The position numbers and the translations under genes were made by a program. The notes under the pieces were generated by a model. It was not told the origin of the DNA, searched no databases, and saw only the letters and a program-made list of their open reading frames with translations. Source: an uncultured delta proteobacterium (GTDB lineage: Bacteria > Myxococcota_A > Polyangia > Polyangiales > Polyangiaceae). From it: DNA of 64,000 nt. Within the stretch, counting starts at the first letter, position 1; each line of letters begins with the position of its first letter. The DNA is taken from positions 1,088,001 to 1,152,000 of the forward strand of contig CAWKKR010000008.1 of NCBI GenBank assembly GCA_963850305.1, written 5' to 3'. Of the stretch, positions 46,672 to 58,818 are shown piece by piece.

Positions 46672-47592
46672 ATGGAGCACGGGCAGAGGTTCTGGCAGGA
46701 CGGGCAGGTCCTCGAGTGGGACGCCGCCGGAAAGGTCTCGCTCCTCACGCACACGCTGCACTACGGCCTGGGGGCATTCGAAGGAATTCGCGCGTATAGA
46801 CGGTCGCACGGCGAGAGCGTCATTTTCCGGCTGACCGAGCACGTGATCCGGTTATTCGAGTCCTGCCGCCTGGTCTTCATCACGCCGCGCGTCACTCGTG
46901 CGGAGCTGGAAGCAGGATGCGCAGCGGTTCTTCGCGAGAATGCACTCGCCGAGGCTTACATACGCCCGATCGTCTTTCTCGGCGAGGGATCGATGGGACT
47001 TCTGCCGAGGGACAATCCGGCAGTCACCGCAATCATGGCGTGGACCTGGGGCGCGTACCTCGGGGCGAAGGGGCTCGACGAAGGGATTCGGTGCAAGGTC
47101 TCGAGCTTCGCGCGCGGCGCGGTGAACGCCGGGCTCCCCCGCGGAAAGATCGTCGGGCAATACGTGAACTCGACGCTCGCGAAGCAGGAAGCGACGCTCG
47201 CAGGATACGACGAAGCGTTGCTCCTCGACGCGAGCGGCTACGTCAGCGAAGGTTCCGGGGAAAATATCTTCATCGTGCGGAACGGGAGGCTCGCGACGCC
47301 GCCCCTGTCGTCGTCGATCCTCGCAGGCATCACCCGCGACACGGTAATCACTCTTGCCAAAGAGGAGGGCCTGGTCGTCGTGGAAGAGCAGTTGACACGC
47401 GACGCGGTCTACCTGGCGGAAGAGGTTTTCTTGACGGGCACGGCGGCCGAGATCACGCCGGTGCGCGAGATCGACAATCGCGCAATCGGCGCCGGGACGG
47501 CAGGTCCGGTGACGAAAACGTTGCAGCGGCGTTACTTCGACATCGCGCGCGGCTCCGACGATTCGCATCCCGAGTGGCTCACCCGCGTATGA
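46672..47592 (+). CDS. ilvE: branched-chain amino acid aminotransferase
   Basis: LHYGLGAFEGIR, EGSGENIF, LAGITRD, TGTAAE. Confidence 0.96.
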   Translation: MEHGQRFWQDGQVLEWDAAGKVSLLTHTLHYGLGAFEGIRAYRRSHGESVIFRLTEHVIRLFESCRLVFITPRVTRAELEAGCAAVLRENALAEAYIRPIVFLGEGSMGLLPRDNPAVTAIMAWTWGAYLGAKGLDEGIRCKVSSFARGAVNAGLPRGKIVGQYVNSTLAKQEATLAGYDEALLLDASGYVSEGSGENIFIVRNGRLATPPLSSSILAGITRDTVITLAKEEGLVVVEEQLTRDAVYLAEEVFLTGTAAEITPVREIDNRAIGAGTAGPVTKTLQRRYFDIARGSDDSHPEWLTRV

Positions 47593-49421: not shown

Positions 49422-49853
49422 ATGGCGACGGCGCGACCGAGCGACGGAGCGGCGACGGATGAAGCGCTTCACTGCGCCGACTCCGAGCGAGAAACACGTG
49501 CGAGCGGCTTTCAGAGGCGCTCGGCGACGCGCGAGGACCCACGGGCAGCATCGGAAGAGCCCACCTCGAAAACGAAGTGGACGGTCGTGCAGGCCTTCGT
49601 GCGCGGCGACTTTCACTATCAGTTGCGCCGTCGGCCGGCACATCATACCCAGCCGCGATTGACCCAACGCGAGGAGCAGGTGCTGGCTCTCGCCCGTGAT
49701 GGCCACTCGAACAAGAGCATTGCGTACGCGCTCGGCCTCTCCCCATCCACGGTGGGCGTGTTGTTGTTTCGCGCCGCCGCCAAGATGGGCGCAAGATCGC
49801 GACGCGAACTGCTCCTGGCGTACGCCCGGTCGAAGCAGTCAATCGGGCGCTAG
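49422..49853 (+). CDS. LuxR-type HTH transcriptional regulator
   Basis: LTQREEQVL...GHSNKSIA..LGLSPSTV. Confidence 0.88.
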   Translation: MATARPSDGAATDEALHCADSERETRASGFQRRSATREDPRAASEEPTSKTKWTVVQAFVRGDFHYQLRRRPAHHTQPRLTQREEQVLALARDGHSNKSIAYALGLSPSTVGVLLFRAAAKMGARSRRELLLAYARSKQSIGR

Positions 49854-50318: not shown

Positions 50319-51344
50319 TTGGAAGATGAGAGGCTTTCTGGTGTCGCACCGCCATCGGTGATTCCTCGCAGTGACGTTCCCATTTCATCGGCGCCCGGCG
50401 ATGCCGACATGGAGGTCCGACCGTTCGTCGCCCACGGGCTCCTGCGCGCCTCCGTTCCGGAGACGATCGGGCTTGCCTGGACCCACGCCAAACCAGGACG
50501 CGACGTCGCCTTGCGCTCGCATCCCATACCGGGGTTGCTCGTCATCCTGCAGGGACGGGCCGAGCTGACCGGGCGGACGCGACGCTTCGTCGAGCAAGGC
50601 GATGTGGTGACCTTACCGAGTCATCACGAGTACGGCTTCGCTTCAGTGGGTCATGCCGGTCTAACTGCGCTGCACGTGGCGTTCCGTAAGGACCCCGAAT
50701 ACCGGACCGACGAAATCCTCAGTCTCGAACATCTGCTCGCACGCAACGAAGTTCGGGCGCAGCTTTCCATCGAAGGTCCCGCCTTTCAACTGCTCAGAAA
50801 CGGCGCTCTCGATGGAGTGAGAAGTCGCGCCCGATTCATCGACTCGATCCGCGTCTTCTCCGACGCCTTTCAGACGATTCTGCTGACGCGTCAGGCAACT
50901 TGCTTCGACGAAGCATACATCCGGACGTTTCACGAACACTTCACCGAGGAGCTCGGACATAACGAGCTTCTCACCGTAACCGAAAATCGGAAGGCTCCGT
51001 CCGACCCAGTCCTTCGCGCGACCTCGCTATGGTTTTGCCACCAGATGCTGGTGCTCGACAACATCGGTAAAGCCGCCCTCGTGCACCTCGTGCTGGAGAC
51101 GGCCGGCCACTACTTTCATACCCTCGCCGAACCCGTTCTCTCCGCAGACGTGAACGCGGGTTACTTTCACGTCCACGCCGAAGCCGACGACGATCACAAG
51201 GACGTCGCCATCGAGTTGCTCGAAGGGCAGCACCCGCACACCTATAGACGCTTGCACCGGATCATCGAGGACGGCTGGGACGTTTTCGACACGATGATGG
51301 CGCGCGTCGCGCACCTGGTCGACCTCGAGACCTCGAGTTCCTGA
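50319..51344 (+). CDS. degenerate cupin + heme-oxygenase-like diiron (HDO) domain fusion
   Basis: EELGH, LVLE, YFHVHAEADDDH ligand set; TTG start with GGGAGGAG RBS. Confidence 0.8.
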   Translation: MEDERLSGVAPPSVIPRSDVPISSAPGDADMEVRPFVAHGLLRASVPETIGLAWTHAKPGRDVALRSHPIPGLLVILQGRAELTGRTRRFVEQGDVVTLPSHHEYGFASVGHAGLTALHVAFRKDPEYRTDEILSLEHLLARNEVRAQLSIEGPAFQLLRNGALDGVRSRARFIDSIRVFSDAFQTILLTRQATCFDEAYIRTFHEHFTEELGHNELLTVTENRKAPSDPVLRATSLWFCHQMLVLDNIGKAALVHLVLETAGHYFHTLAEPVLSADVNAGYFHVHAEADDDHKDVAIELLEGQHPHTYRRLHRIIEDGWDVFDTMMARVAHLVDLETSSS

Positions 51345-51377
51345 CACGCGCCAGCGAACGGAGAAGAAGGTGAAGCC

Positions 51378-52394
51378 ATGGAAGGTCAAATTCAGGTCGT
51401 AAAGAGAGAGACGATCCCGCCGATTCGCTCGGTCGATCAGCAAGGACACGTCCACGGGTTGGGCGAGCTGCGGGATTTCCGGTGGAGCGCCGAGCTCCGA
51501 CAGTTCATGCCCGACGCGTCCGAGTTTTCGGTCAGCTGGGTGCGGCTCGAACACGAGGAAGTTCTTCATCCGCACACGCATCCCATTCAATCGATGCTCG
51601 TCGTTTACGCCGGCTCCGGACGCATGCTCGGCGACCTGTGCCAGCCCATCTCCGAAGGTGACGTGATTGTCGTCCCTCCGGGTCGGATGCACGGATTCGT
51701 CGGCGGCCTTGAAGGGCTTCATGCACTCTCCATCCAATTCGGCGAGGGTCTCTATACGACCCCCGAGAAACCGCGCGTCATCTTCACGGACGCCAACGGG
51801 TCCCTGAGTGCCCTCCTCCTCTACAGCGAAAAGCGGCAGCAAGAATTCTCCCGATCGTCACTCTTCGAAATGCTCGAGGATGGGACGCTCCGCCAACCGT
51901 CCAGGCGGGCGATGTTCGTCGAGTGCGTCCGAATCTGGGACGCCGAGAGGAACAAGCTGTTGATGTGCCGGCAGGCGACCACGATGGATCCGACCTACGA
52001 GCGGGCCTTCCTTGCCGATCTTCGGAGCAAGCTCGGTGACCGTGCAGACCTCGGCGAGGCCGTCGACGTGCGGGATGCGACCCTCCAGTCGCTCGCGAGC
52101 TGGTTCTCTTACCAAATGTACGTGCTCGACAACGTCGAGAAAGCAGCGCTGGTCCACCTCGTGGTGGAAAAGGCGGCCGCGGTACTGGATGAGGCCACCG
52201 AGCGCGCCCTCGGCGACGTGTCGTGTCGCCCCGCGTCTCGAAGCTCCTCGCCTAGTGACGGTCGTGACCTCGAGCTTCTCCGAAACGAGACCGACGCCAC
52301 CTACACGCGGCTCCGGCGCCTCGTGAGTGAAGCTTGGGACATGGTGTTCGCCTTGACGGAACGCATCGTCGACCGGACGCGTGCGGCGTACTGA
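51378..52394 (+). CDS. cupin + degenerate HDO domain fusion (paralog of the upstream gene)
   Basis: HTH...GDVIVVPPGRMH cupin; RQAT, QMYVLDNVEKAALVHLVVE shared with the paralog. Confidence 0.8.
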   Translation: MEGQIQVVKRETIPPIRSVDQQGHVHGLGELRDFRWSAELRQFMPDASEFSVSWVRLEHEEVLHPHTHPIQSMLVVYAGSGRMLGDLCQPISEGDVIVVPPGRMHGFVGGLEGLHALSIQFGEGLYTTPEKPRVIFTDANGSLSALLLYSEKRQQEFSRSSLFEMLEDGTLRQPSRRAMFVECVRIWDAERNKLLMCRQATTMDPTYERAFLADLRSKLGDRADLGEAVDVRDATLQSLASWFSYQMYVLDNVEKAALVHLVVEKAAAVLDEATERALGDVSCRPASRSSSPSDGRDLELLRNETDATYTRLRRLVSEAWDMVFALTERIVDRTRAAY

Positions 52395-52427: not shown

Positions 52428-54131
52428 ATGTCGTTTCGCGCGGATGAGTTCGAGCTCGATCGATATCCGTACGCGGCCCGACGCGTGCCCATCTTCGCGC
52501 CGCACGGCGCGGTCGCGACGAGCGAACCCCTTGCCGCACAAGCGGGGCTCCGCATCTTGCAGCGCGGCGGCAATGCCGTCGATGCCGCGGTCGCCACCGC
52601 CGCGACGCTGACCGTAGTCGAGCCGACTTGCAACGGGATCGGCGGCGATGCCCTTGCACTCGTCTGGGACGGCTCGGCGCTTCATGGGCTCAACGGGTCC
52701 GGACGCGCGCTCGCCGCACATACCCCTGAACTCTTCTCTAAGCTCGAGCTCGATCACGTGCCTCCGCACGGCTGGCTCCCGGTGACGGTTCCGGGCGTTC
52801 CCGCGTGCTGGAGGGATCTTCATCAGCGCTTCGGCAAGCTGCCGTTCGAGGCGCTGTTCGAGTCGGCCATCGAATACGCCACGGATGGCTTTTCCGTTGC
52901 GCCCGTCACGGCTCAGCGCTGGCGCGCGGCAGCCGCCATTCACGCCGCCCGGACCAGCGACGAGCCCGCAATCATGCCGTGGCGCGAAACGTTCACGCGA
53001 GACGGGCACGCGCCGCGTATCGGCGACAAGTGGTCGCTACCCGATCTCGCCTCGACCCTGAAGGAGCTCGCGGCGACCTCCTGCGAGTCCTTCTACCAAG
53101 GCAAGCTCGCAAACCAGATCCTGAACTTCGCGGATGCCACGGGAGGCTATCTGACGCGCCGCGACCTCGCGAACCATCGGAGCACCTGGGTGACGCCCAT
53201 CAGCGCCAACTACCGTGGCTACGACGTATGGGAAATGCCACCCAGCACTTCGGGGATCGCGGCCCTGACGGCTCTGAACATTCTCGAGGGCTTCGATCTG
53301 GCGCGCCATCCGCGTGAATCGATCGATAGCTACCATCTCCAGATCGAGGCGATCAAGATCGCCCTCGGGGATGCGTACGGTTACCTCGCCGATCCCGACG
53401 TGACGGCGGTGCCGTTTCAGGTCCGTCTCGACAAGAGATACGCGGCGGAACAGCGACGGCATATCGGCGACAGGGCGCTGTCATCACCCCCGAGGGATCC
53501 CCCGCGAGGGGGAACCGTGTTTCTGACCGTCGCGGACGCCGACGGCATGATGGTCTCCTTCATTCAGTCGAACTACACCGGGTGGTTGCTCGGATTTGGT
53601 TCCGGCGTGGTGGTACCGAAGACGGGGATCGCGCTGCACAGCCGCGGCTGTGGCTTCACGCTGGACCCGCGTCACCCGAACGTGATCGCCCCGGGCAAAC
53701 GACCGTTTCACACACTGGCACCGTCATTTCTCACGCGGGACGGGAACGCCATTGGACCTTTCGGGATCATGGGCGGACCGATGCAGCCGCAGGGACACGT
53801 ACAGTTCATCGTGAACCAGATCGACCACGGGATGAATCCGCAGGCATGCGTCGACGCGCCCCGGTTCCAGTGGATCAGCGGGAACGTCGTCGAAGTGGAG
53901 CTCGGCGTGCGCCCCGAGTTGGTGCAGGGCCTGGTCGTCCGCGGACACGACGTCCGACCGTGCGTCGATTTCGCCGCGATTCCCCCGCGGCTCAGCGGCC
54001 CCTTCCTAGGAAGCGGGGGCATGGCGAGCAGCGGGGACTTCGGCAAGGCGCAGATCATCCGGCGTCTCGGGAACGGCACGTACGTCGCGGCAAGCGATTG
54101 GCGCTCCGACGGTTGCGCCGTCGGTTATTGA
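52428..54131 (+). CDS. gamma-glutamyltransferase family protein (cytoplasmic, YwrD-like)
   Basis: GGNAVDAAVA, GIGGD, TVPG, GG-TVFL nucleophile Thr, PGKRPFHT, GGPMQPQGH; no signal peptide. Confidence 0.93.
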   Translation: MSFRADEFELDRYPYAARRVPIFAPHGAVATSEPLAAQAGLRILQRGGNAVDAAVATAATLTVVEPTCNGIGGDALALVWDGSALHGLNGSGRALAAHTPELFSKLELDHVPPHGWLPVTVPGVPACWRDLHQRFGKLPFEALFESAIEYATDGFSVAPVTAQRWRAAAAIHAARTSDEPAIMPWRETFTRDGHAPRIGDKWSLPDLASTLKELAATSCESFYQGKLANQILNFADATGGYLTRRDLANHRSTWVTPISANYRGYDVWEMPPSTSGIAALTALNILEGFDLARHPRESIDSYHLQIEAIKIALGDAYGYLADPDVTAVPFQVRLDKRYAAEQRRHIGDRALSSPPRDPPRGGTVFLTVADADGMMVSFIQSNYTGWLLGFGSGVVVPKTGIALHSRGCGFTLDPRHPNVIAPGKRPFHTLAPSFLTRDGNAIGPFGIMGGPMQPQGHVQFIVNQIDHGMNPQACVDAPRFQWISGNVVEVELGVRPELVQGLVVRGHDVRPCVDFAAIPPRLSGPFLGSGGMASSGDFGKAQIIRRLGNGTYVAASDWRSDGCAVGY

Positions 54132-54203: not shown

Positions 54204-54779
54204 TCAGCTCTTCCAGATGATCTCGAACGCCGCTTCGTCGGTGCTGGGCTTCTCGAGCGACCATCCCGTGACGGTCGTACGCTCGAGGGATTTTCCCATC
54301 GTCTGAAGAGCAAACGTCACGAAGCCGGTCGCGGTGCATGCGGCGTGGTCGAACCCGCTGGTGCCGAGCACCTGGCAGACGAGCTTCGTGTCCGTAACAT
54401 CGACGATCAGCTTCCCGCGATTGCAGTCGCGACTCCATAGGTCCGGGACCTTCTTTGCGAAGAGCGCGGGCGTCAGCATCTTCATCAACAATCTGAGGAA
54501 TGTGTTCGTCGCCTCTCGCGCCATGCTCGCGCCGCATCCGATCAGAAGATCCCTGGCGCGGTCCTGGTCGCCGCCAGCCAGTGTTGCAATTGCCGCGGTT
54601 ACCTCGGACATGGCCGAGACCGGCGCCCACGCGCCTGCCTTCCCGCCCACGACTACCTCGCGCGTCTGCGGTGCAAACGCATCGACGATGCGCTGCCCCT
54701 CGGAACCTGCCAGCTCACGGAGATAGTCCACCGAGGCCAGCACCATGTATCCGCGCACCTGAAACTGCTCTTGAGCCAT
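54204..54779 (-). CDS. hypothetical protein (myxobacterial, possibly V4R-like fold)
   Basis: About 190-aa ORF; fold guess from pattern only. Confidence 0.6.
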   Translation of the reverse strand: MAQEQFQVRGYMVLASVDYLRELAGSEGQRIVDAFAPQTREVVVGGKAGAWAPVSAMSEVTAAIATLAGGDQDRARDLLIGCGASMAREATNTFLRLLMKMLTPALFAKKVPDLWSRDCNRGKLIVDVTDTKLVCQVLGTSGFDHAACTATGFVTFALQTMGKSLERTTVTGWSLEKPSTDEAAFEIIWKS

Positions 54780-55368: not shown

Positions 55369-56001
55369 ATGGAGGCCGTGTTCGAGAAGGCGCTAGCTGT
55401 CCTCGTGCAGCATATTTCCCCGGTAAACGCCCGATCCTTGTTGCTGCGCGCACTCCACGAGCAGCGCCTTACACCGCGGGATCTGACGAAGCAGGACCTG
55501 AGCAAGTGCAGCGTCGCACTCCGTCGGGGCGTCGCCCTTTTCGTGGAACCAGAACGCCGCCAGGCGGCGCTGCGGACAATCGCCGACCTGTGCGGGGAGG
55601 ATCCGACTGCGCTCGATCCATGCCTCCTTCAGATCACCACCGAGTCCGACATCGGGAAGGCTCGAGCGGAAGCGCGGCGGATCTGCGATGCGATCGGTGC
55701 CTCGCCGTTCGTGATGCAGAAGATCGCGACCATCATGAGCGAGCTAGCGCGCAACATGGTGCTCTATGCCGGCGGGGGCGTGGTCGAAATGATCGCGATG
55801 AACACCGGACAGCGGCGTGTGCTCATCCGTGCAACGGATCGCGGCAGGGGCATTCCGAATCTCGAGGAGGTCATGTCGGGCAAATACAAGAGCAAGACGG
55901 GCATGGGGCGTGGCTTGCTCGGGTCGAAGCGTCTGGCCGATCGGTTCGACGTCTCCACGGGAACGGCGGGCACGCGCGTATCGTTGGAGGTCTTCTTATG
56001 A
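55369..56001 (+). CDS. rsbT: RsbT-like Ser/Thr kinase with N-terminal extension
   Basis: SELARNMVLYAGGG, DRGRGI, GMGRGL.GSKRL.D.F. Confidence 0.85.
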   Translation: MEAVFEKALAVLVQHISPVNARSLLLRALHEQRLTPRDLTKQDLSKCSVALRRGVALFVEPERRQAALRTIADLCGEDPTALDPCLLQITTESDIGKARAEARRICDAIGASPFVMQKIATIMSELARNMVLYAGGGVVEMIAMNTGQRRVLIRATDRGRGIPNLEEVMSGKYKSKTGMGRGLLGSKRLADRFDVSTGTAGTRVSLEVFL

Positions 56002-56564
56002 AGTTCCGCGTGGCCCATTCATCGTCGCCGATGGTCGGAGAAACCGCGAACGGCGACAGGGCCGTCTTCCGGACGGACGAAGAGGACCGCACGCTCATCG
56101 CGGTTATCGACGCTCTGGGACACGGGCCCGGCGCAGCAGTCGTCGCCGACGCCGCTGCGGAGTGTTTGGCTCAGATCTCTCTGGAGTCGACGATGCTCGA
56201 CGTCGTCCAGACGCTGCACGCGAAACTCGCCGGATCGCGCGGGGCCGCCGGGACCCTGTGCCTCTTTCGCGAGCGAAACGTCGAGGCGTGCGCCGTCGGG
56301 AACGTGGAGCTGCGATGTGCAGATCTCCGGCTGCCGCTCGTGTTCTCGGCCGGAGTTCTCGGCGCGAGAGTGGCGAAGTTCCATGTGTGCCGCGCCGTCA
56401 TACCCGGGCGCGCGCGCTGCGTTCTATTTTCGGACGGGATCTCGTTGCGAGTACCGCTCGAGGACGTGCGGGGGCTTCCACCAGACGAGGCATGCAACGT
56501 CATCCTCACGAAGTATCGGCGAAAAGAAGACGATTCAACGGTCCTCGTGGCTGACATGGAGTGA
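55998..56564 (+). CDS. rsbX: RsbX-like PP2C/SpoIIE phosphatase
   Basis: NGD, IDALGHG, LFSDGI, DDST. Confidence 0.8.
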   Translation: MKFRVAHSSSPMVGETANGDRAVFRTDEEDRTLIAVIDALGHGPGAAVVADAAAECLAQISLESTMLDVVQTLHAKLAGSRGAAGTLCLFRERNVEACAVGNVELRCADLRLPLVFSAGVLGARVAKFHVCRAVIPGRARCVLFSDGISLRVPLEDVRGLPPDEACNVILTKYRRKEDDSTVLVADME

Positions 56565-56570
56565 GCTTCA

Positions 56571-57023
56571 ATGGACGACGGCTATCATCGGATACCAATC
56601 ATCGAGTTCTGGGATCTCCTTCTGGTCCCGCTCCAGGGCGACATGACGGACGACATGGCGAGCCGCCTGGTGTCGGAGGTCCTCGATCGGATCCATCGGA
56701 GCGGAGCTTCCGGTCTGATGATCGACATCACGGGCCTGTGGCTCGTGGACAGCCATCTGTGCGCCGTGCTCTCCCAGCTCGCCGCTGCAGCGTCGCTGAT
56801 GGGAGCGCGCACGCTGATCTCCGGAATGAAACCCGAGATAGCCATGGCTCTCGAAACGATGGGAATCAAGCTGGCGAACGTGACGACGACGCTCGATCTC
56901 GAAACGGCGCTCGGGCTTCTCGGCGTGGGTCGACCGAATCTCGACGTCACCCGGCTCGACGCGCTCGATCTCGCCGAATCAGGGGCGGGCGCAAATTCCT
57001 TCCCCGCGGAGGCTTCCAAGTGA
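56571..57023 (+). CDS. rsbS: RsbS-like STAS protein
   Basis: IPII, LQGDMTD, IDITGL.LVDS, GMKPEIA. Confidence 0.85.
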   Translation: MDDGYHRIPIIEFWDLLLVPLQGDMTDDMASRLVSEVLDRIHRSGASGLMIDITGLWLVDSHLCAVLSQLAAAASLMGARTLISGMKPEIAMALETMGIKLANVTTTLDLETALGLLGVGRPNLDVTRLDALDLAESGAGANSFPAEASK

Positions 57024-57691
57024 AGAGCGGAGATTCCCCGGACGTCGAAGCCGAGCTGGTCCACTCGGTCGGCGCGCTTTTGTCCGTGGTTGCGGCGGTC
57101 GGCAGGGGCGACCTTTCGCAGAGGCTCGAGGTTCACTATCCGGATTCGCACCCGGTCGGCGCTCTCGTTCAGAGCGTCAACTACATGGTCGACGCGCTGG
57201 CGGAGGCGCGTTCCACTTCGGCCGCGTCTCTCGCCCAGCTGAGTGATCGCATCGCGACGATCGAACACCAGCGTGAGGCCATTCGTAACTTGACGGTCCC
57301 CGTCATCGAGATCTGGGCGGGCGTGCTCTGCGCGCCGGTCGTCGGAGTGCTCGACAGCGTGCGCGCAGCGGACGTCACCCAGACGCTCCTGCAAGCCGTG
57401 GTCGAAATGAAGGCGCAACACGTGATCATCGACGTCACCGGCGTCGAAGTGATGGACACTCAATCGGCTGATCATTTTCTCCGCATCGCACGTGCCGTGA
57501 TGTTGCTCGGCGCTCGGTGCGCGCTCTCGGGGATGCATCCGAACATTGCCCGTACCATCGTCCACATGGGCGTGGATCTTCAGGGCCTCAAGAGCTACCG
57601 GAACATGCGAGACGCGCTCCGACACTGCGTCCACGACGTTCGTGCACGCCGCGCTGGACGCACACCTGGTGGAGCTTCCAGGGCCCCGTGA
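57020..57691 (+). CDS. rsbR: RsbR-like STAS protein with HAMP-like N-terminus
   Basis: LTVPVIEIW.GVL..PVVG.LDS.RA, IDVTGV..MDT. Confidence 0.85.
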   Translation: MKSGDSPDVEAELVHSVGALLSVVAAVGRGDLSQRLEVHYPDSHPVGALVQSVNYMVDALAEARSTSAASLAQLSDRIATIEHQREAIRNLTVPVIEIWAGVLCAPVVGVLDSVRAADVTQTLLQAVVEMKAQHVIIDVTGVEVMDTQSADHFLRIARAVMLLGARCALSGMHPNIARTIVHMGVDLQGLKSYRNMRDALRHCVHDVRARRAGRTPGGASRAP

Positions 57692-57737
57692 TGCCCCGGA
57701 AGGACCCCCAAACCGCTCGAGAAAGGTCCGAAGAATC

Positions 57738-58361
57738 GTGAGCTCCGCGACGATGTCCGAAGACGAGATCCTGGAAGCAGTGGCTGACGCTTTGTTGACG
57801 CTCGCGAACGTCGGGTATGGGGACTACTCGACTCGCCTGACGATCGACCCGAACGACACTGGCCCGTTGACGACCCTTTACATCGGCATCAACGAGATGA
57901 TCGCGTCGCTCAGCATCGAACAAGACAAGAGTCGAGCCTATCAGGCCGAGCTCGAGGAGAAATTAGCGACGATCGAGAAACAGCGAGAAACGATCCGTGA
58001 ACTGTCCACGCCGATCATGGAGGTCTGGGACGGCGTGCTCTGCCTCCCGGTGGTCGGAATCATGGATACCGTCCGCAGCGCGGAGATGACGACGTCGCTA
58101 CTTCAAGCGGTGGTCGAGAAGAAGACGAGGTGCACTATCATCGATATCACGGGCATCGACGTCATGGACACGCGGACGGTCGATCACTTCATGCGTATGG
58201 CGCGTGCCGTTCGGCTCCTCGGAGCGGATTGCGTTCTGACTGGGATCAACCCGCACATCGCACAGACGGTCGTGCACATGGGGATCGACCTCACGAACGT
58301 CGTCACTCACCGGACCCTCCACGAGGCGTTGCAGCAGTACGTGGAGCGGAGCTCCCGCTGA
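57738..58361 (+). CDS. rsbR: second RsbR-like STAS protein with HAMP-like N-terminus
   Basis: ELSTPIMEVWDGVLCLPVVGIMDT.RS, IDITGI..MDT; start uncertain. Confidence 0.85.
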   Translation: MSSATMSEDEILEAVADALLTLANVGYGDYSTRLTIDPNDTGPLTTLYIGINEMIASLSIEQDKSRAYQAELEEKLATIEKQRETIRELSTPIMEVWDGVLCLPVVGIMDTVRSAEMTTSLLQAVVEKKTRCTIIDITGIDVMDTRTVDHFMRMARAVRLLGADCVLTGINPHIAQTVVHMGIDLTNVVTHRTLHEALQQYVERSSR

Positions 58362-58368
58362 CATCGGA

Positions 58369-58818
58369 ATGCCGCACTGCGACGTCCGTGACTGGGTAGA
58401 CGTCTTTCACGTGCAGCGCACCGTCGCGGGCTTCGCGCGCGATGTCGGGTTTTCGAGGCTCGAGAGCAACGAACTGGCGATCGTCGGATCCGAGCTCACC
58501 TCGAATATCTTGAAGTACGGAGTCGTGGGTGCGGTGGACGTGGAGCCGTACGTGGACACTCGGGGTGGGGGACTGACTCTCATCGCGACGGACCGCGGCC
58601 CTCCATTTCACAATCTCGACGCCGCGCTGCAAGACGGCTGTGACGATCGGGGTCCGATCGATCCGCTCCAGATGCTGACACGGCGAGGGATCGGAGGGGG
58701 CCTCGGGGCCGTGCTGCGCCTGTCACATTCTTTCCGCGTCGAGCCTCACCCTGGGGGTAAGAGAGTTCACGTGATTCGCTACCTCTCATCGGTCAAACCC
58801 ACGCGCGGCTCCCCGTGA
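58369..58818 (+). CDS. second RsbT-like HATPase kinase
   Basis: SELTSNILKYG, DRGP, GIGGGLGAV.RL. Confidence 0.8.
   Translation: MPHCDVRDWVDVFHVQRTVAGFARDVGFSRLESNELAIVGSELTSNILKYGVVGAVDVEPYVDTRGGGLTLIATDRGPPFHNLDAALQDGCDDRGPIDPLQMLTRRGIGGGLGAVLRLSHSFRVEPHPGGKRVHVIRYLSSVKPTRGSP

Follow-up and report, generated by a model that had tools for sequence, protein, structure and literature searches.

Heme-oxygenase-like diiron oxidases (HDOs) form a superfamily of which about a dozen members have been characterized, most of them with new chemistry (PMC13108848). SznF (PDB 6VZY) is, according to the same 2026 review, the only characterized HDO with a cupin; its single chain comprises an N-terminal dimerization domain, a central diiron HDO, and a C-terminal three-histidine (3-His) cupin, used for two-site chemistry. 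AetD and SktA (PDB 8TWN, 8JI2) have a single domain, oxidatively cleave or rearrange the tryptophan (Trp) side chain, and are encoded near Trp halogenases and flavin monooxygenases (PMC11869266). Here we describe two tandem genes, A and B, found in a stretch of 64,000 nucleotides (the window) from an uncultured myxobacterium of the Polyangiaceae (GenBank assembly GCA_963850305.1, contig CAWKKR010000008.1, positions 1,088,001 to 1,152,000). Each encodes an N-terminal cupin and a C-terminal HDO-type domain, and the functional metal sites are divided between them. With a confidence just short of even, we propose that A and B form a heterodimer that oxidizes the Trp side chain, with the cupin performing a second step, to give a small indole metabolite that is possibly a signal. 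This cupin-HDO subfamily appears not to have been studied previously: we found no HDO family with an N-terminal cupin in the literature searched, although the supplementary HDO sequence networks of PMC7848743 and PMC11363339 may include it.

The proteins encoded by A and B align with each other (30% identity over 309 columns, E 5e-37), and the motifs quoted in the original prediction are common to both. AlphaFold modeled each as a cupin followed by a heme-oxygenase-like (HO-like) bundle, with a mean predicted local distance difference test score (pLDDT) of 90.3 for A and 84.7 for B, confirming that they are tandem paralogs with the domain arrangement first proposed. In Pfam, the cupin matches of both proteins were below threshold and PF14518 matched A weakly. 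Since the Foldseek results were dominated by cupins, a wide structural search was used instead. For A it returned CADD (Z 18.9, root-mean-square deviation 2.6, 192 residues aligned), HamA (18.2), UndA (18.2), HrmI (18.1), and AetD (18.0), all tied within 1 Z unit; in the suggested comparison with SznF and CADD, the latter was thus at the top and SznF far lower (Z 12.7, rank 35). B, despite its dead HDO, matched HamA (15.8), AetD (15.4), and BesC (15.0), so that the C-terminal domain is HO-like in both proteins, as expected. A shows the seven-helix fold of the superfamily and its ligand motif, with E and H on core helix 1, E on helix 2, and H-D/E-H on helix 3. All six ligands are present, accompanied by the conserved residues H207 and E210, and two of the three cupin His are lost (R66/H68/Y105). 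B kept the fold but not the dimetal motif: five of the six ligand positions are lost, the sole survivor being a Glu that matches E260, and the His triad of its cupin is complete (H66/H68/H105). Both sets of assignments agree with the original prediction. From its fold and motif, A is a member of the HDO superfamily, with a predicted O2-activating dimetal cofactor.

To describe the conservation of these sites we used the best 119 of 170 proteins from the A homolog search (120 with the query) and, besides the query, the best 119 of 144 from the B search, of which five are partial sequences. The named A homologs among the matches listed belong to the Polyangiaceae. The A ligands were retained in nearly all rows (E211 119, H214 118, E260 118, H286 117, D290 116 with Glu in two more, and H293 118), the cupin positions held R in 102, H in 87, and Y in 114, and a 3-His cupin was present in none of the 119. 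Because the six ligand columns hold in 116 to 119 homologs and the 3-His cupin in none, the A pattern is not due to chance. The B homologs were more diverse: 51 have an intact cupin and a dead HDO, 45 both sites intact, 21 neither site, and two a dead cupin with an intact HDO, the His triad being kept in 96. The clean reciprocity of the window is one of three common B states; the reciprocal loss anticipated for the homologs is therefore uniform on the A side but not on the B side. We assembled 36 putative pairs, of which the window was read on DNA and the other 35 were matched by the equal length of their longest contigs. A was always cupin-dead and HDO-intact in these pairs, and the B cupin was intact in 30 of them (B fully intact in 16, HDO-dead in 14, and doubly dead in 6; one A has two B partners). 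The A and B distances of 35 aligned pairs were correlated (Mantel r 0.57, reached in 0 of 2000 permutations), as the linkage of the two genes would lead one to expect.

Loci with a single family gene indicate how the pair may have originated. Both sites are kept in 27 of 32 such loci; three of the others are cut by contig ends and two, L026 and L027, are cupin-dead. A family search gave 500 matches, the best 150 of which yielded 134 new cluster representatives, and both sites were present in 62. In these two-site proteins the pocket columns are occupied by S181 (60), F184 (60), and Q185 (58), and the cupin carries S72 (57). The same pocket is found in the 120 A rows (S181 102, F184 114, Q185 120), and the HDO-intact B proteins have V181, G183, and N184, together with the cupin S72, in 45 of 45. 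Since the HDO pocket of A and the cupin of B are both those of the ancestor, the pair would correspond to a split ancestral enzyme, and we consider it very probable that A and B derive from one two-site protein. As judged by these residues, nearly every pair has an A that retained the HDO of the ancestor and a B that retained its cupin; the HDO belonging to B has turned into a different, optional enzyme. Duplication followed by subfunctionalization of a single gene with both sites, as originally predicted, is thus supported by the single-gene loci and the pocket columns.

An IQ-TREE phylogeny of 49 chosen rows, from which the ligand-bearing columns were left out, recovered A as one clade (support 96) and B as another (97). 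The HDO state changed at least six times on this tree, and the hypothesis that the 21 B rows with a dead HDO arose once was rejected (p-AU 0.007, approximately unbiased test). A FastTree phylogeny of 141 rows gave at least five HDO-state changes among the B rows. By both trees, the HDO of B has been lost repeatedly.

The dead domain has nevertheless been maintained. Among 46 B proteins with a dead HDO and an intact cupin, pairwise identity drops to 16-24% in the three helices that bear ligands, whereas segment 229-259 stays 57% identical and segment 305-333, 49%. Gene B of the window shows the same division, its ligand-bearing helices having decayed and the helices at the modeled interface being retained. 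The dN/dS of the dead domain was about 0.16-0.26 in four close pairs, indicating that it is under purifying selection. A model of the A:B complex reached an ipSAE (an interface score) of 0.80, compared with 0.00 for the best of three controls, which did not include homodimers; the runs agreed in at least 89% of the contacts and the partner pLDDT was 81. Of 157 solved complexes, 116 attain the mark used for ipSAE, as do 2 of 215 mismatched pairs, a calibration that is rough for the alignments used here. The modeled interface is mainly cupin-cupin, with exchanged N-terminal strands, and the HDO contacts involve A residues 194-197, 242-249, and 311; the second and third of these sites fall in the segments that dead B domains conserve. 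Small monocupins of the TM1459/DddK type dimerize by strand exchange, and they share with A and B the fold of both N-terminal domains and, with the A:B model, the strand-exchanged dimer. The differences are the fused HDO of both proteins, the H-x-H...H motif of B, where Ser occupies the fourth ligand position, and the R/H/Y of A. A mandelonitrile lyase assignment for the B cupin was not accepted (E 1e-4; 21.8 bits, where the cut-off is 140). The AetD dimer also uses its fourth helix (PMC10654658), which by helix order would map to about residues 230-245 here. Taken together, A and B probably form a heterodimer, with the qualification that the score expresses no preference for it over homodimers; of the proposed obligate heterodimer, the association itself is backed by the model and its exclusiveness lay outside the controls.

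The closest characterized enzymes were sought with a profile built from 19 HDO-domain sequences. Its best PDB match was AetD (E 0.005, profile positions 19-180), and an AetD homolog was matched with a probability of 91.7 and an E of 7.6e-7; CADD, UndA, HamA, HrmI, and BesC gave no sequence match to this profile at E up to 10. These five have the fold (Z 17.3-18.9) and the E-H-E-H-D-H motif (PMC11363339) in common with A but are without a cupin domain and act on other substrates. Single-sequence PDB searches gave weak cupin matches only and none to AetD. A and AetD/SktA share the HO-like fold, the three-His/three-carboxylate (3H/3C) ligands, identical E/D-x2-H spacing, and a similar core helix 2 motif, and F180 (113 of 120 A rows) and F184 (114 of 120) align, weakly, to F44 and F48 of AetD. 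In AetD both residues clamp the substrate or stack on it, F44 being the one that clamps the indole (PMC10654658), and F48 stands where SznF and RohS carry an extra Glu ligand (bioRxiv 2023.08.03.551874). On the other hand, AetD is a homodimer, and the cupin-HDO family adds an N-terminal cupin, here split over two paralogs. Identity between AetD and A is about 15% in the structural alignment, and the reaction of A is predicted by analogy. Membership in the AetD/SktA clade was rejected, as there was no single-sequence match and the profile E of 0.005 compares with 1e-43 for a true homolog (SktA has 39%); by this comparison, the family of A is a distant relative of the clade and not part of it. 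Because the alignments are weak and 3H/3C enzymes include the N-oxygenase HrmI (PMC13108848), the reaction type is not fixed by these similarities.

Evidence about the substrate came from the gene context of 19 loci that show A and B on one stretch (seven with an intact B, one of them frameshifted, seven with an HDO-dead B, and five in which B is doubly dead). Of the 19, 9 encode Trp or aromatic ring-tailoring enzymes, counts of this kind being overstated because kin loci are not independent. A Trp halogenase is present in five (L023, L029, L030, L043, where it is in one frame with A, and L048); the L029 enzyme, the one tested, matched PrnA with E 3e-224. A PhhA-like hydroxylase and a methyltransferase occur in three loci (in genome G377 as a second, cluster-specific copy), a flavin monooxygenase-like gene in two, and a TsrM-like radical S-adenosylmethionine (SAM) enzyme with a further HDO beside the pair in one, L033. 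A pyridoxal-phosphate fold type IV (PLP-IV) aminotransferase with an HHYG motif accompanies all seven intact-B loci and L048 and is absent from the other 11, a set that includes short loci. A γ-glutamyltransferase (GGT)-family gene is found in 5 of the 7 loci with a cupin-intact, HDO-dead B and in none of the other 12, and in L035 and L036 the doubly dead B has a stand-alone His-triad cupin directly behind it. From this context, Trp is reasonably likely to be the substrate.

Fourteen of the 19 paired loci include stressosome genes or the orphan genes c4 and c13; of the remaining five, four span less than 5.5 kb, and the other one, L048, has an AT-rich sequence and is apparently unrelated. The one RsbRST-type cluster found in the window's genome adjoins the pair. 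The stressosome module is commoner than the pair: among 401 genomes of the order, 71 have the RsbT-like fusion, 25 have c4, and five have the pair. An A-profile search across the phylum gave no match in 400 other genomes at E 1e-10, and a scan of genome contigs found one locus. The orphan protein c4, for which an Atlas lead pointed to DUF2378 (13% of one cluster), is a candidate ligand receptor. Of 15 additional c4 loci that lack the pair, several have other small-molecule cassettes and others no clear cassette. Those beside c4 and the stressosome (L085-L099) include an FAD oxidase; a flavin monooxygenase with a P450; a carrier protein with an acyl-CoA dehydrogenase and a halogenase; and an isopropylmalate synthase-like protein with a radical SAM enzyme and LuxE. 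It is possible that c4 and the stressosome constitute a general signal-synthase/sensor module, a context consistent with a synthase and a sensor without being proof of them. The literature searched held nothing relevant on a small-molecule input for a myxobacterial stressosome.

These observations can be combined as follows. One ancestral cupin-HDO gene would have carried a 3-His mononuclear and a diiron site; after duplication, A would have kept the diiron domain and B the cupin. Heterodimerization through cupin-cupin strand exchange and a small HDO-helix contact would rebuild the two-site enzyme in trans, and it is because of this that the metal-free cupin of A and the dead HDO of B would be retained. 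The substrate-triggered 3H/3C diiron center of A would bind free L-Trp or ring-substituted Trp and cleave or rearrange its side chain oxidatively, in the manner of AetD and SktA; the B cupin would act next, on the intermediate, and the GGT-like hydrolase would trim the product. In the ancestral pair, the HDO of B presumably gained a different pocket and worked with the PLP-IV aminotransferase, and where that enzyme is absent, as in the window, it would have decayed. The product may be a small indole-type metabolite; a signal role, with the adjacent c4-stressosome module reading it, is conceivable but falls clearly below an even chance. A wider reading, which we hold to be rather doubtful, is that a heterodimer of reciprocal pseudo-domains, arrived at more than once, turns Trp, its ring decorated differently in each lineage, into a diffusible signal of the indole type for the adjacent orphan receptor and stressosome, which would amount to a myxobacterial signal-synthase/stressosome module with interchangeable synthesis cassettes. 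Several points weigh against the proposal. In L026 and L027 the lone gene is cupin-dead and HDO-intact with no partner within 8 kb, and 23 of the 134 family representatives have an intact HDO and no aligned cupin, some probably being fragments; these suggest that the HDO may work without a cupin. The 21 B homologs that lack both sites, the indirect matching of most pairs, the tie in the fold ranking, the weakness of the AetD match, and the kinship among the loci count in the same direction, as does the possibility that the A:B score, with a mostly cupin-cupin interface, echoes solved monocupin homodimers. No stand-alone cupin lies near the doubly dead B of L024 and L044; in G369, a search that had no positive control did not detect the cupin of the L035 type. 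The window contains no Trp-tailoring gene, and tblastn with the queries used gave no Trp halogenase, O-methyltransferase, or flavin monooxygenase match in its genome.

In one alternative, A alone would be catalytic and B a structural or regulatory subunit that completes the cupin barrel of A, its His triad serving as a metal or ligand sensor. The doubly dead B proteins are still conserved (cupin 67% identity), lone cupin-dead genes exist, the modeled interface is mainly cupin-cupin, and the neighborhood is regulatory. We regard this role as unlikely, given that the B triad is kept in most homologs and matches the single-gene ancestor, and that in L035 and L036, where B is doubly dead, the next gene encodes a His-triad cupin that stands alone. 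Separate A and B homodimers, in which the HDO of B is decaying baggage left after the aminotransferase partner was lost, would agree with the several or more losses of that domain, the low identity of its ligand helices, and the lack of homodimers among the controls. The purifying selection on the dead domain, the retention of residues at the modeled interface, and the doubly dead B retained beside A in 5 of 19 loci make it the least probable of the explanations considered here.

Two further alternatives concern the chemistry. In one, A of the same heterodimer would N-oxygenate the Trp amine with decarboxylation, as FlcE and HrmI do, to an oxime or nitro compound of the labindole type, which the cupin would finish. 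A myxobacterium is the source of 2-methyl-3-(2-nitroethyl)- and 3-(2-nitrovinyl)indole, named labindoles A and B (PMC6017429), the TsrM-like enzyme adjoins the pair in L033, and the 3H/3C set of HrmI (PMC13108848) means that a missing seventh ligand is no bar. We consider it distinctly unlikely, since the second HDO of L033 could carry out that step and the sequence affinity is to AetD and not to HrmI or RohS. In the other, which follows the original prediction, a split SznF-like enzyme would N-hydroxylate an amino acid, for instance a derivative of Arg, and the cupin would rearrange it to a nitroso or N-N product. The combination of an HDO with a 3-His cupin, located here in B and not in A, is that of SznF chemistry (PMC7848743); SznF was the only HDO match of the full-length profile (32 residues, E 0.009); and D182, kept in 117 of 120 A rows, is close to the seventh-ligand position. 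However, the domain order is opposite, there are two genes instead of one, no dimerization domain is present, F184 aligns (again weakly) to the seventh ligand E189, and the structural rank is low. The annotated neighbors of the family loci suggest Trp and aromatics and include no Arg-modifying or N-N pathway gene, so that neither the SznF likeness nor the N-N or nitroso chemistry was upheld. Such a reaction is very improbable; by these comparisons, the pair resembles SznF only in joining an HDO and a 3-His cupin and is not a member of its family. The Trp-oxidizing heterodimer is thus the explanation that we favor.

The features of the locus are listed in Table 1. The GGT-family gene is the probable third gene of the operon. 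A promoter and terminator scan gave counts at chance level.

Table 1. Features in and around the A/B locus (window coordinates; aa, amino acids; HTH, helix-turn-helix; Ntn, N-terminal nucleophile)
Feature	Position	Strand	Description
Protein of 273 aa	48279..49100	-	just upstream of the LuxR-type gene; signal-peptide-like start; no Pfam match
LuxR/GerE-type HTH regulator	49422..49853	+	upstream of gene A; similar regulators at related loci; putative role
Gene A	50319..51344	+	341 aa; TTG start; strong ribosome-binding motif GGGAGGAG at 50304-50311
Gene A, domains			cupin at about residues 10-124, metal-free (R66/H68/Y105); HDO at about 131-340, intact 3-His/3-carboxylate
Gene A, HDO ligands			E211, H214, E260, H286, D290, H293; pocket S181-F184-Q185, the ancestral one
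Gene B	51378..52394	+	338 aa; 3-His cupin H66/H68/H105 with S72; HO-like domain
GGT-family Ntn hydrolase	52428..54131	+	33 nt past gene B; closest solved relative 2NLZ (E 2e-169)
c4, orphan protein	54204..54776	-	190 aa; convergent; no Pfam/NCBIfam match
RsbRST-type stressosome cluster	55369..58818	+	RsbT-like kinase fusion, STAS proteins, second RsbT-like gene

Other genes were considered as parts of the pathway. The ilvE gene of the window (46675-47589) was rejected as the pathway aminotransferase, as it has the canonical motif and orthologs of 63-78% in four of four same-genus genomes without the pair. The trpBA genes beside the G083 locus were dropped as evidence, since that genome has no other trpB match. 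In the window's genome, the sole trpB-like match (G000:C7:357906-358733) is partial (42%) with two in-frame stops, and may be broken or frameshifted.

Several family loci have distinctive surroundings. In L033 (2357-4788, with the further HDO) the TsrM-like B12 radical SAM gene apparently occupies two frames (TIGR04428, E 1e-75, below the cut-off), making this locus a candidate for 2-methylindole products such as labindoles. In L048 (1293-10019), one strand carries A, an HDO-dead B, and the Trp halogenase; the opposite strand carries a stand-alone B-type HDO, the PLP-IV enzyme, and an AMP-ligase-like gene. L025 (1661-3178) encodes two cupin domains before the HDO and sits between a MauG-type di-heme peroxidase and a P450. 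In L053, L061, L062, and L064 a single cupin-HDO gene is followed by an anthranilate-dioxygenase-like Rieske pair and a CoA transferase III, in a set with a CynX/NimT-like transporter, TauD, and a ferredoxin (annotated in L061) that may represent a catabolic route. In L058, L060, L065, L069, L071-L073, and L076 the single gene lies in a conserved cluster, biosynthetic and apparently unassigned. Its companions are an ATP-grasp ligase, an ABC protein of 1,120 aa, an orphan protein of 311 aa, and a PLP-IV enzyme, joined in some loci by a 2-oxoglutarate-Fe(II) oxygenase. Among the c4 loci, L086 (7775-13191) encodes an AetD homolog (E 1e-43), a Trp dimethylallyltransferase, an HMG-CoA reductase, and an FAD oxidase, and L093 (9368-13482) the same dimethylallyltransferase and reductase combination; both gene sets fit a prenyl-indole cluster, of which the indiacens are candidate products.

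The cupin-HDO family shows a clear division of labor between enzyme and pseudoenzyme, with convergent loss repeated among the B proteins. It also offers natural controls in its two-site single genes, split forms, and doubly dead partners, which would allow each metal site to be assigned to a step. If the stressosome link is functional, the product of the pair would be a candidate small-molecule input for a myxobacterial stressosome.

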